The notes under the pieces are model-generated. The model saw only the letters and a program-made list of their open reading frames with translations, had not been told where the DNA came from and did not search any database. A DNA stretch of 32,000 nucleotides. It comes from an uncultured archaeon. Its GTDB lineage: Archaea; Asgardarchaeota; Thorarchaeia; Thorarchaeales; Thorarchaeaceae. The position numbers were made by a program, and so were the translations under genes. Below are positions 14,362 through 22,096 of the stretch, piece after piece (position 1 is the first letter of the stretch; the number at the start of each line of letters is the position of its first letter). Where the stretch lies: contig CAYHAA010000001.1 of NCBI GenBank assembly GCA_964354495.1, forward strand, positions 90,001 through 122,000. Reading direction: 5' to 3'.

Positions 14362-14763
14362 TTATGCTGTCTTTACTCTGGTAATAACACGTCGATTCAT
14401 TAATTCCCAGACTTCAACCTCACTGTTGAGGCTTATCTGTGTGAGAAGATCCTGATCTGTTGGCTTGGGGAGGTCATAGGTCTCGAAGGACTCAGTGTCC
14501 ATCAGGCTATAGTTTTCTCCAGTGTCAGCAATCACCGTGGCAATTCTCTTGTTGATGACTGGTACATCTACCATCCGGTCTGCAGGCATGATGACATTAC
14601 GTTTCCTGTTATCAAAGAAACCAACTGCAATGATGTTTGCCTTTGCGGCACCATGTTTTCCAGGCTTGGACTTATCCATAGACACAACTCTACATGGTTC
14701 GTCATCAATTACCATATACGCTCCGGGCTTCAAGCTCTTTGCTTCAGCTTTTCTAATATCCAC
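14362..14763 (-). CDS. eif5a: Translation factor aIF5A
   Basis: Hypusine loop SKPGKHGAAK, IDDEPCRVV, LMDTESFET. Confidence 0.97.
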   Translation of the reverse strand: MDIRKAEAKSLKPGAYMVIDDEPCRVVSMDKSKPGKHGAAKANIIAVGFFDNRKRNVIMPADRMVDVPVINKRIATVIADTGENYSLMDTESFETYDLPKPTDQDLLTQISLNSEVEVWELMNRRVITRVKTA

Positions 14764-15780: not shown

Positions 15781-16302
15781 GTGAGCCGGATGCCACGCAC
15801 CTTTGTTGTTGATGCAGGCGCACTGTTTTCCACATGGACAAAAAGGGTGGGTGAGGCTGTTTTTTCCACCACGACTGACGTAGTAGATGAGATTCGCAAT
15901 CGACCAAGCAAATTCCGAGCAGGCCTTCTGGAGGTTCTCGATAGACTTCGGGAAGAAGCGCCCCCGACTGATTCAATCAAAGCTGCAAGAAAAGCGGCCA
16001 CTGAAACTGGCGATGATTCGACTCTCTCACAGACTGACATTGAATTGATTGCGTTGGCATATTCAAAGAAGCAAGATGGAAGCAGCATTGCGCTTGTATC
16101 AACAGATCTTGCTGTTTTGAACACAGCTCGCCATATGGGTATAGAGACTGTGGATCCCAGCGGTAAGTTCAAGGATGACATCAAATGGGCCTCAATCTGC
16201 CCCGCGTGTAATCACAGGTCAATAGCGTCAAAGGCCGGTCTTGAATGCCCTGTCTGCGGAACTCCGATGCGCCGAAGGGCGCTCAAAAAGGGCAGAAAGT
16301 AG
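15781..16302 (+). CDS. nob1: Nob1 endonuclease (PIN + zinc ribbon)
   Basis: VVDAGAL, DVVDEI, LSQTDIELIALA, STDLAVLNTA, and zinc ribbon CPAC...CPVCG. Confidence 0.92.
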   Translation: MSRMPRTFVVDAGALFSTWTKRVGEAVFSTTTDVVDEIRNRPSKFRAGLLEVLDRLREEAPPTDSIKAARKAATETGDDSTLSQTDIELIALAYSKKQDGSSIALVSTDLAVLNTARHMGIETVDPSGKFKDDIKWASICPACNHRSIASKAGLECPVCGTPMRRRALKKGRK

Positions 16303-16371
16303 GGAATGTGGGTAATACCCAAGTCTTACATGATATGAAATTGGTACTTGCTTTCTGAAAGGGGTGTAGAG

Positions 16372-16650
16372 ATGTCCATAATGACAGAAAGACCTGCACT
16401 AACAATTCAGCGAGACCTTGATGACATCAAGCTCCAGGTCAAAAAGGAATTAGAAACAATTCGAGACCTGATGGATACGCATGGGTACCGAAATCCTTCT
16501 GCAACCTGGAATGCTCCATTTCAGATACACCGCCTCCGAAGAGCTATGAGGATACACTACCTGGCGCTGAAGATACGTGACTCTGCACCGGTCAATCATA
16601 GCCTACGCGAACTGTCTTGGGACCTAAAATCTGATCTTGAGACTCCCTAA
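16372..16650 (+). CDS. Hypothetical helical protein
   Basis: 92-aa ORF. ATG 16372 follows GGGGTG. It fills the gap, and its stop abuts the convergent yjbQ stop. Confidence 0.55.
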   Translation: MSIMTERPALTIQRDLDDIKLQVKKELETIRDLMDTHGYRNPSATWNAPFQIHRLRRAMRIHYLALKIRDSAPVNHSLRELSWDLKSDLETP

Positions 16651-17136: not shown

Positions 17137-18972
17137 CTATCTTGTTACTCTCACAATCTTGGACTGAGCAATTAGGCTGCGGATTCGGTCGTCCTTGGTC
17201 AGAAGGCTCTCTTCGTTTTCCTGAAGGATGAGCAGAGCGCCAATATGATTGCCCTCGTTCAATGCAATAATCAAGGACGTGAGTGCATTGATTATGTCAT
17301 CCTGCATCGTCTTTGCTATTTCCTCGATAGATGAGATTGTCGTCTTGATTTGCTTCCGATTATCGGGGTAGTGCATGAAGCGTGCCTCGAACACTCCAAA
17401 TAGGTCCTCGAATGCTTCCTTCAGCTCGTTAGCGGCCTTAAATCCCTCTGCAGATTTCGTAAGCAGTTCAATAGCTTTCTCTATCATCTTGTCCGAGCTT
17501 GTCTGTAGTGCCTCTATTCCAGCAGTCCTAATCCAGATTGTTGCTAATTCGGGGACTCCAAGCTGTTTATAGTACTCCGCCGCCTGCTCTGCTTTTTCAC
17601 TTGCCATGCAGTGGAACGATTCGTTTCTCTCTGCATCACCTAGTCGCGAAGCACAATCTGCAGCTCTGCTGTAGAGTTTTGATGCCATCTCTGCTTCTTC
17701 TGCGGTCGATTTTTCCTCAGCTAGTTCAACATACAGAGTGATTGCTTGTTCAATGAGCTTGGTGTTCTCTTCTTTCTGACCTGACTCAAGGAAGACTTCT
17801 GCCGCCTCCTCCAGTGCGATAGCTTGTCGTTCCTTGTCTCCTGCCTTGCTCCGATTCTGAGCTTGCTCGAGGTAGTATCTTGTTACCTGTGAGTAGATCT
17901 CCTTGGCTCGGTCTTCATATCCCGCGTTCTTCAGACACATGGCTTGATATCTGAGGTACTTCTTTTCCGAGTCAACTTCTCTGTCTGATGCCGCCCTCTT
18001 GGCCAATTCTTCAAACATCTCACTTCCTCTCTTGAATGCCCACTTTGCCTTCATACCTCTGCCCAGTTCGCTGAACATATTGCCTCCCTTCACCAGGAGA
18101 GGAGCTACAGCCTCTGGTGTACCCTCCATCTTCAGATATGCCTCTGCAGCGTTAGCGAGCGCCTTATTTCTGGCAGATGTCAGTCGTTGAAGTCTATAGG
18201 CTTCTTGAGCAGCATCATAGATGTTTCCTGCCTTCTCATAGAGTTGTGCAGCCTCATACAGCTCTCCAGCCTCCATCATTGTACGCGTAGCTTCTGGAGA
18301 CTCCCCTATTGTCTGCATGATTTGAGCCGCTTCTGCTAGGGCATTTCCTGCAGAGAGGAAGTCGCCCTTGCTTTTTGAAGTCCTTGCCCAATGCTGAGCT
18401 ACCCTGACTGCCCGGTCATTGATTCTCTCTCCGAGCTCCTCATCACCAGCAGTATAGTAGAGCCTGCTGACCTTTCGAAGGAGGCCTATTGTCTCAGAGA
18501 AGTCCCCCTGTTCCTCTGTGCCATCTGCGATATTCTCCAAGGCATCGGCCGCTCGAATGTTGGTGGTCTTCTTCTCTTCATCTGTCATAGCAAAATCTTT
18601 GGCTCTGAAATAGAAATCAGCAGCTCTCTTGTATTCATTTGCTGCATCTGCGATTTCTCCGGCTCTCATGTTGAGTCGAACTATCTCTTTGTAGATTCCC
18701 GGACCCTGAGGCATTCTGACCATCATCAAGGTTGCCCTATCAAACAACTTGAAGCTCTCGTCTGCACGATGTAGATCTCGATAGACGAGCGCTGCCTCTT
18801 CGAATGTCTTTGCAGCCATTTCGTATTCATTCTTCGATTCCAAGTGTTCTGCTGCCTTTACGAGCTTCTTCACGCCCTCCTCAGTATTCCCATCAGCAAG
18901 AGCCTGTTTGGCTTCTTTAAGGAGGTCATCGCTAGGGGTCAAGACTATTAGTTCTCCTTCACTTGGTTCCAA
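17137..18972 (-). CDS. Alpha-solenoid protein with alpha-SNAP-like (TPR-like) repeats
   Basis: All-helical Ala/Glu/Lys-rich sequence with repeated A..Y..AA..Y units (EMAAKTFEEAALVY, SAGNALAEAAQIM, EKAGNIYDAAQEAY, MASKLYSRAADC). The start may be TTG 18942. Confidence 0.7.
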   Translation of the reverse strand: MEPSEGELIVLTPSDDLLKEAKQALADGNTEEGVKKLVKAAEHLESKNEYEMAAKTFEEAALVYRDLHRADESFKLFDRATLMMVRMPQGPGIYKEIVRLNMRAGEIADAANEYKRAADFYFRAKDFAMTDEEKKTTNIRAADALENIADGTEEQGDFSETIGLLRKVSRLYYTAGDEELGERINDRAVRVAQHWARTSKSKGDFLSAGNALAEAAQIMQTIGESPEATRTMMEAGELYEAAQLYEKAGNIYDAAQEAYRLQRLTSARNKALANAAEAYLKMEGTPEAVAPLLVKGGNMFSELGRGMKAKWAFKRGSEMFEELAKRAASDREVDSEKKYLRYQAMCLKNAGYEDRAKEIYSQVTRYYLEQAQNRSKAGDKERQAIALEEAAEVFLESGQKEENTKLIEQAITLYVELAEEKSTAEEAEMASKLYSRAADCASRLGDAERNESFHCMASEKAEQAAEYYKQLGVPELATIWIRTAGIEALQTSSDKMIEKAIELLTKSAEGFKAANELKEAFEDLFGVFEARFMHYPDNRKQIKTTISSIEEIAKTMQDDIINALTSLIIALNEGNHIGALLILQENEESLLTKDDRIRSLIAQSKIVRVTR

Positions 18973-21301: not shown

Positions 21302-22096
21302 CTAGGCATACATACGTTCATACCCACGATGCCCAGTGCTCTTCTGCTGATGCTGCATCCCATCAACCTGTTGAGCCATCTCTTCCATCTTGCGGCGAAT
21401 TATCTCGCTGCCTTCTTTGAGTTCTGTAAGGTCTATCTTCAAATCGTAGAGTCTGTTGAGCGCCTCAAGTAGTTGTACAGCTCCTCCGGGGTCTGGGATG
21501 ACAGAGATTGCTGGCGTCAATAGTGCAAAACCAACCATGGATCTGCATAGTGTTTCGGACAGAATCGAACCAGCAATACCCGTGATGATGCCCTTGTCCA
21601 AGATCTCCATGTCTTTGTCCTTTGCTAGGTCTGCTATCTTCTCTTCCTCTGCTGCGAACAGGACTTTGCGTTCAGATGGTAGTCCCTCTACTGGTATTCC
21701 ATCAAGGATTACGATATCTTTCACACCCATACCTGCAGCCCAGTCAAGTAAGGTTGAACTGACAACATACAGCCCATCGTCTGATACTGGAAGCTCAGCG
21801 GTGACAACGATGAGGTCGAGTTTCTTGTTCCCATAGATTCTGAACGGATGCCGAAGCCGTCCCTCCAAGAACACTGCCGCTGACGGCATGTACCTTGACC
21901 TCAGATGTGCAATCTCCACCATCTTGAGCTGATCGATAATCGCATGAGCAACGATTGGACCAACAACTCCAGCAGATGGAAAACAACAAATCATAAGGGG
22001 CGCCTTAAGTTTCATCTCCTTCGTCTGAACGACATGAGCATCAGGCGATCCCAACACTTTTGCATCGCAGGCTTTTTCCAATATCAGGAACCTCAC
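21302..22096 (-). CDS. PAC2-family proteasome assembly chaperone
   Basis: FPSAGVVGPIVA, PSAAVFLEGRLRHPFRIY, IVILDG, PDPGGAVQLLEAL, IDLTELKE. The start codon is uncertain. Confidence 0.88.
   Translation of the reverse strand: MRFLILEKACDAKVLGSPDAHVVQTKEMKLKAPLMICCFPSAGVVGPIVAHAIIDQLKMVEIAHLRSRYMPSAAVFLEGRLRHPFRIYGNKKLDLIVVTAELPVSDDGLYVVSSTLLDWAAGMGVKDIVILDGIPVEGLPSERKVLFAAEEEKIADLAKDKDMEILDKGIITGIAGSILSETLCRSMVGFALLTPAISVIPDPGGAVQLLEALNRLYDLKIDLTELKEGSEIIRRKMEEMAQQVDGMQHQQKSTGHRGYERMYA

Follow-up and report, generated by a model that had tools for sequence, protein, structure and literature searches.

A strongly conserved TPR-like alpha-solenoid of Thorarchaeota that probably shares a repeat type with alpha-SNAP rather than membership of the NSF-adaptor family

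Introduction

Does a long helical protein encoded in a Thorarchaeota genome belong with the NSF adaptors alpha-SNAP and Sec17, or does it share with them only a type of repeat? The gene in question lies on the minus strand of the window, the 32,000-nucleotide stretch of DNA that was analyzed here, and a sequence-only reading had taken its product for a double-length alpha-SNAP-like solenoid that might serve an archaeal AAA+ ATPase as an adaptor. Public databases already give the family a ‘SNAP domain’ or a ‘TPR repeat’ tag.

SNAPs are proteins of ~290 aa built of 14 helices, nine of which form a twisted sheet and five a bundle. Their N-terminal hydrophobic loop (F27/F28 in alpha-SNAP, F21/M22 in Sec17) contacts the membrane, and the acidic C-terminus of alpha-SNAP carries a conserved penultimate Leu that is needed to stimulate NSF, as seen with L294 mutants. 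LGN, a TPR protein of 8 hairpins, is built of ~40-residue units whose first helix bears a Gly-Asn that grips extended peptides within the inner channel. In the literature that we searched, SNARE-like proteins are reported in Heimdallarchaeota only, and an archaeal or Asgard SNAP is described nowhere; what disassembles the Heimdall SNARE-like complexes is left open in a 2026 preprint (10.64898/2026.10.19.760048).

Results

The minus-strand ORF at 17137-18972 is free of stop codons for 611 codons, and the peptides quoted in the sequence-only reading, DFLSAGNALAEAAQIMQTIGESPEATRTMMEAGELYE (aa 204-240) and EMASKLYSRAADC (aa 428-440), were both found in its translation. The true start is likely the TTG at 18942 (residue 11), which would give a CDS at 17137-18942 (minus strand) and a product of 601 aa, since homologues are 598-601 aa long with N-termini at the equivalent of residue 11 and an AAGGAG lies ~11 nt upstream of this TTG. 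The start of the mechanically called ORF, a TTG at 18972, probably lies 10 codons upstream of the true one. With a dN/dS of 0.04-0.09 against two congeners, for which dS was saturated, and with an unbroken frame in almost every one of the 80 related genomes in which it occurs, the gene is real and under purifying selection. A single in-frame TAA was seen in two orthologues (G336:C1:395450-397243 and G325:C127:86005-87783). The codon may stem from a sequencing error, represent a nonsense allele or be read through. A 127-aa ORF at 18391-18774 on the plus strand runs antisense to the gene and is most likely a by-product of its Ala/Glu-rich codons and no gene.

When a profile of the family was run against 400 Asgard genomes, a full-length copy was present in 79 of the 85 genomes of the source organism’s own family, mostly one per genome, and in the only sister-family genome (26% identity). 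The remaining genomes held no member of the family, only weak TPR-level matches and one fragment; the family was not found in Asgard lineages outside this order, any closer to eukaryotes included. The fragment (G137:C81:117-593, E 2e-58) comes from the genome of a different Asgard family and sits on a contig of ~600 bases that was probably mis-binned. A HMMER search of 1.84 billion representatives returned the family itself and its fragments, followed by multi-domain caspase-TPR, STAND-TPR and kinase-TPR proteins, with no eukaryotic SNAP among the matches. Named relatives are proteins from Thorarchaeota MAGs that go under ‘TPR repeat protein’ or ‘hypothetical’, and a precomputed PF14938 (SNAP) tag is attached to almost every one. 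In Thorarchaeota, to which it is specific, the gene is a single-copy core gene.

The AF2 model of the whole protein is all helical (pLDDT 90), with 28 predicted helices arranged in 14 hairpins of ~43 residues. This is twice the 14 helices of a SNAP, and the estimate of about twice the length of alpha-SNAP held. The N-terminal half (aa 12-305; 18058-18939, minus strand) is modelled as a TPR-type superhelix of 14 helices. The C-terminal half (aa 284-611; 17140-18123, minus strand) comprises 15 helices arrayed as hairpins, with shorter helices at its end. Because the C-terminal half of the full model had matched Sec17 and gamma-SNAP, aa 284-611 were also folded alone, which again produced helix hairpins only (pLDDT 94, pTM 0.85). 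Tandem antiparallel hairpins wound into a superhelix, with Z scores of 15-16.5 to solved TPR domains, make the protein a TPR-like alpha-solenoid, one whose repeat unit is ~43 aa and not 34.

Structure searches place this solenoid among TPR proteins in general. The full-length model retrieved long generic TPRs from the PDB with Foldseek (Ctr9, Ski3, IFT-A, OGT and LGN), all at a TM of 0.2 or less, and SNAP was absent from the best 50 matches of that search. In VIA comparisons, the best match of the N-terminal half was LGN (3ro3), with a Z of 15.7 and an rmsd of 4.1 over 151 residues; BF2334 and FLU-TPR ranked next. The C-terminal half of the full model matched Sec17 (Z 14.2, model residues 284-611 on chain residues 5-291) and gamma-SNAP (Z 14.1). 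A preference for SNAP over generic TPR families had been set beforehand as the test of the SNAP reading, and none emerged when the C-terminal half was compared alone: Pins (Z 16.5) and LGN (15.6) scored above Sec17 and gamma-SNAP (both 14.8), which were level with a radial-spoke TPR (14.8) and followed by STAND-TPR (14.6), RapI (14.5), EMC2 (12.4) and a proteasome lid subunit (10.6). The superposition on Sec17 (residues 5-291) had an rmsd of 17 Å and that on gamma-SNAP (residues 10-275) one of 9 Å, with 229 aligned residues at 18% identity. Foldseek was tied for the same half, with LGN at E 4.7e-6 (TM 0.42), alpha-SNAP at 9.2e-6 and gamma-SNAP at 1.1e-5, and a TM of 0.40-0.45 throughout. As judged from these predicted models, SNAPs are among the best structural matches of the solenoid, without preference over generic TPRs.

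LGN/Pins TPRs (PDB 4a1s, 4wng, 3ro3 and 4g2v) are thus the best structural matches of both halves, but identity is only 9-15%, the solenoid lacks a GoLoco region or linker, and it has 14 hairpins against the 8 of LGN.

The likeness to alpha-SNAP that the sequence-only reading had noted is measurable, but the register it had proposed was not recovered by HMMER. PF14938 is the top Pfam family on the solenoid (43.7 bits, E 3.2e-11; gathering cut-off 25 bits), the only others being TPR models below threshold, with TPR_12 at 19.1 bits (cut-off 30.1) and TPR_7 at 14.6 (cut-off 27.9). As no canonical TPR model reaches its cut-off on the solenoid, the repeats are divergent; many homologues do exceed that of TPR_12. 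No catalytic family was found on the solenoid with Pfam. The best sequence matches in the PDB for the 121 residues of aa 190-310 were alpha-SNAP chains (E 1e-4, 25.8 bits), then Sec17 (E 0.04). HMMER placed this segment on alpha-SNAP in two registers, at residues 29-95 and 95-178, which locates the likeness at the level of the repeat. A profile of the C-terminal half gave no significant match in the PDB, with SNAP at E 0.2, and in the search with the whole-family profile OGT/CTPR and SNAP were intermixed at E ~1e-3.

What the PF14938 match stands for was seen from where it falls and what else receives it. Its best stretch runs from aa 196 to 289 on profile positions 81-175, and in a piecewise scan aa 27-169, 196-289, 346-491 and 489-522 each mapped to positions 22-182 of 282, the hairpin-array part of the SNAP profile; no stretch of the solenoid mapped to the SNAP C-terminal domain (positions ~190-282). 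An ordinary TPR protein of 295 aa from the same genome scored 42.6 bits on PF14938, together with 84 bits on TPR_12 and 75 bits on TPR_2. The family was above its cut-off in 352 of the 400 Asgard genomes, usually several times in each and on ORFs of 245-1857 aa, always at profile positions ~30-200. Bacillus, Deinococcus, Bacteroides and Methanosarcina controls were matched as well, two of the four above the cut-off. These results make PF14938 a marker of a repeat type and not of the NSF-adaptor family.

The nearest ESM Atlas clusters are likewise PF14938-tagged TPR proteins from methanogens, Bathyarchaeota and other Asgard archaea. Among them, a 393-aa protein of Methanobacteriota and a 525-aa protein of Promethearchaeota score 0.92-0.95 in language-model feature space and are uncharacterized; their lengths differ from that of the solenoid, and their HMMER matches to it are weak (E 1e-6 to 1e-8) and cover the first ~70 residues.

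The 295-aa TPR protein has an acidic tail and is encoded directly downstream of, and co-directionally with, a 233-aa Ras/Arf-like small GTPase, in the same genome and outside the window (L001:587-2295, corresponding to G000:C1 ~154495-156203). Orthologues of 291-295 aa occur in congeners, and the GTPase and the TPR protein may be a pair.

The sequence-only reading had taken the length, about twice that of alpha-SNAP, as a sign of repeat expansion. The two halves are not copies of each other, as hhalign matched them at 57% probability over 50 columns, and thirds of ~175 aa matched one another at 17-51%; a tandem doubling of a SNAP-sized unit is not supported by these weak matches. Single hairpins, those starting at helices 2, 10/11 and 18/19, were the most alike (73-95%). 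Since halves and thirds are unlike and single hairpins weakly related, the solenoid appears to be an old, diverged repeat array with no recent doubling.

Conservation across the family is highest at helices 10-16, and N210, N250, K308, W311, W480 and R482 are invariant. The most conserved part is the central segment (aa 196-303, helices 10-14; 18064-18387, minus strand), which scores 0.84-0.93 per helix, also holds the strongest PF14938 and alpha-SNAP matches, and contains invariant A-G-N and G-G-N motifs (N210 and N250; G297). The solenoid has a pI of 5.0, and no transmembrane segment was found (maximum Kyte-Doolittle 19-residue mean, 1.29).

Features that define a SNAP were looked for at both ends of the protein. 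The last 15 residues are not conserved; in most members they are net basic (+2 to +7), in others they end in THW(L/A)YK, and an acidic tail with a penultimate Leu was not found across the family. The first inter-helix loop, which may or may not correspond to the membrane-contact loop of SNAP, reads D-G-N, and the N-terminus is polar. For the SNARE domain (PF05739), the best match in the organism’s own genome had an E of 0.65, which is the noise level of 11 control genomes and a search that divergent SNARE-like proteins could escape. The genome has two Cdc48 genes of the ordinary archaeal type, both on other contigs than the solenoid gene (in the regions of G000 C20:37315-37563 and C5:107497-107748).

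The gene sits in a block that runs GlnA, CDF, PAC2, POR-gamma, amine oxidase, solenoid, UPF0047, orf100, Nob1-like PIN, NAD kinase, aIF5A and Lrp, with PAC2 at 21302-22096, the Nob1-like PIN at 15781-16302 and aIF5A at 14362-14763. This block of 13 kb is collinear in eight genera, with neighbors on both strands, and because the whole block is collinear, adjacency says little about a partner of the solenoid. UPF0047 is the only co-directional neighbor, 57 nt apart, and the order of the two genes is swapped in the sister family. Insertions seen at the locus elsewhere comprise a Gfo/Idh/MocA oxidoreductase gene and ORFs that belong to no family. The oxidoreductase gene adjoins the solenoid gene in other genera, where it is inserted upstream, as well as in the sister family (L009:3459-4565, L019:13385-14527 and L024:10817-11917) and is not at the solenoid locus in the genome of the window. 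Between the Nob1-like PIN and UPF0047 lies orf100 (16348-16650, plus strand), an ORF of 100 aa without a Pfam family that is conserved at 48-87% identity and in equal position in all eight genera examined.

No AAA+ gene occurs among the neighbors of the solenoid gene in the eight genera, and a linked AAA+ partner was rejected on that ground. The Bet3-like gene of the window had been cited alongside the possible adaptor role; Bet3-like genes lie ~10 kb from the solenoid gene, and the region is collinear throughout. No partner is indicated by anything in these surroundings.

Discussion

We interpret the protein as a lineage-specific TPR-like scaffold that binds other proteins passively, a reading to which we give a probability of about three in four. 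In its favor, the structural neighbors of the solenoid are peptide- or protein-binding TPR proteins. The likeness to SNAP probably reflects a common repeat type, long Ala/Tyr-rich TPR-like hairpins, and not membership of the NSF-adaptor family. With SNAP and Sec17 (PF14938; PDB 2ifu, 1qqe, 9cru and 3j96) the solenoid shares Ala/Tyr-rich hairpins of ~40 residues and A-G-N-x-F/Y motifs; unlike them, it is of double length, has a basic and variable tail, and lacks both a match to the SNAP C-terminal domain and a SNARE/NSF context.

As a soluble, acidic, all-alpha protein, the solenoid would act as a passive platform for protein-protein interaction, with at least one partner, a protein or an extended peptide, presumably bound along the groove of the superhelix. 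The main binding site would be formed by the repeats at the center, which are the best conserved (helices 10-16, aa ~205-350) and in which a ladder of invariant Asn and Gly-Asn residues may hold the peptide backbone as TPRs of the LGN/Pins type do. By analogy with LGN/Pins and Rap-type TPRs, groove binding through this Asn ladder is the most likely mode.

Two other readings have to be weighed against a passive scaffold. The solenoid could be a true relative of alpha-SNAP and Sec17 in function and descent, a double-length adaptor through which a substrate complex is docked onto an AAA+ ATPase like Cdc48 or NSF, and we regard this as very improbable. The Pfam match of 43.7 bits that speaks for it is confined to the repeat part of the profile, in several registers, and it stands beside the 42.6 bits of a plain TPR protein and the spread of PF14938 through Asgard and two of the four matching control genomes. 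Alpha-SNAP does head the PDB sequence matches of aa 190-310, but the half that is shaped like a SNAP has no significant sequence match to one, and where Sec17 and gamma-SNAP span that half end to end (Z 14.8) they superpose at an rmsd of 9-17 Å, with LGN and Pins scoring higher. The genome offers two Cdc48-type ATPases, but on other contigs and with a SNARE search at control level, and the tail of the solenoid is basic or variable where that of SNAP is acidic. Disassembly of the Heimdall SNARE-like complexes was left open in the preprint cited above (10.64898/2026.10.19.760048), which leaves room for an adaptor; the solenoid family, however, was not found in Asgard lineages outside its own order, any closer to eukaryotes included. 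A narrower form of this idea, in which a Thorarchaeota-specific, double-length cousin of SNAP links an archaeal Cdc48 with a substrate that is a coiled coil or associated with membranes, is if anything slightly harder to credit. The interpretation as a SNAP adaptor is, on the whole, mostly not supported.

An assembly chaperone or scaffold for a machine encoded nearby, either the proteasome (PAC2) or the small ribosomal subunit and translation (Nob1-like PIN, aIF5A), is also unlikely, less so than a SNAP relative. Solenoids of the TPR/PCI type do serve as assembly scaffolds, and a proteasome lid subunit and EMC2 are among the structural matches. The gene also keeps constant company with PAC2, the Nob1-like PIN and aIF5A in eight genera and the sister family, but that company is shared by the whole collinear block, with its genes on both strands, and is little informative. 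UPF0047, the sole co-directional neighbor, is on the other side in the sister family, and in other genera a Gfo/Idh/MocA gene has been inserted beside the solenoid gene.

A true SNAP relative would add an NSF-adaptor-like part to the Asgard trafficking set and bear on the disassembly of SNARE-like complexes, and the Cdc48-coupled form of it would be an archaeal analogue of NSF-SNAP; genes for TRAPP/Bet3-like proteins and small GTPases are present in the same lineage. As a caution, a PF14938 ‘SNAP’ match in Asgard archaea is no evidence of SNAP function, because ordinary TPR proteins exceed the threshold in 352 of the 400 genomes. For the Thorarchaeota, the solenoid is probably best seen as an uncharacterized, strongly conserved and lineage-specific scaffold.
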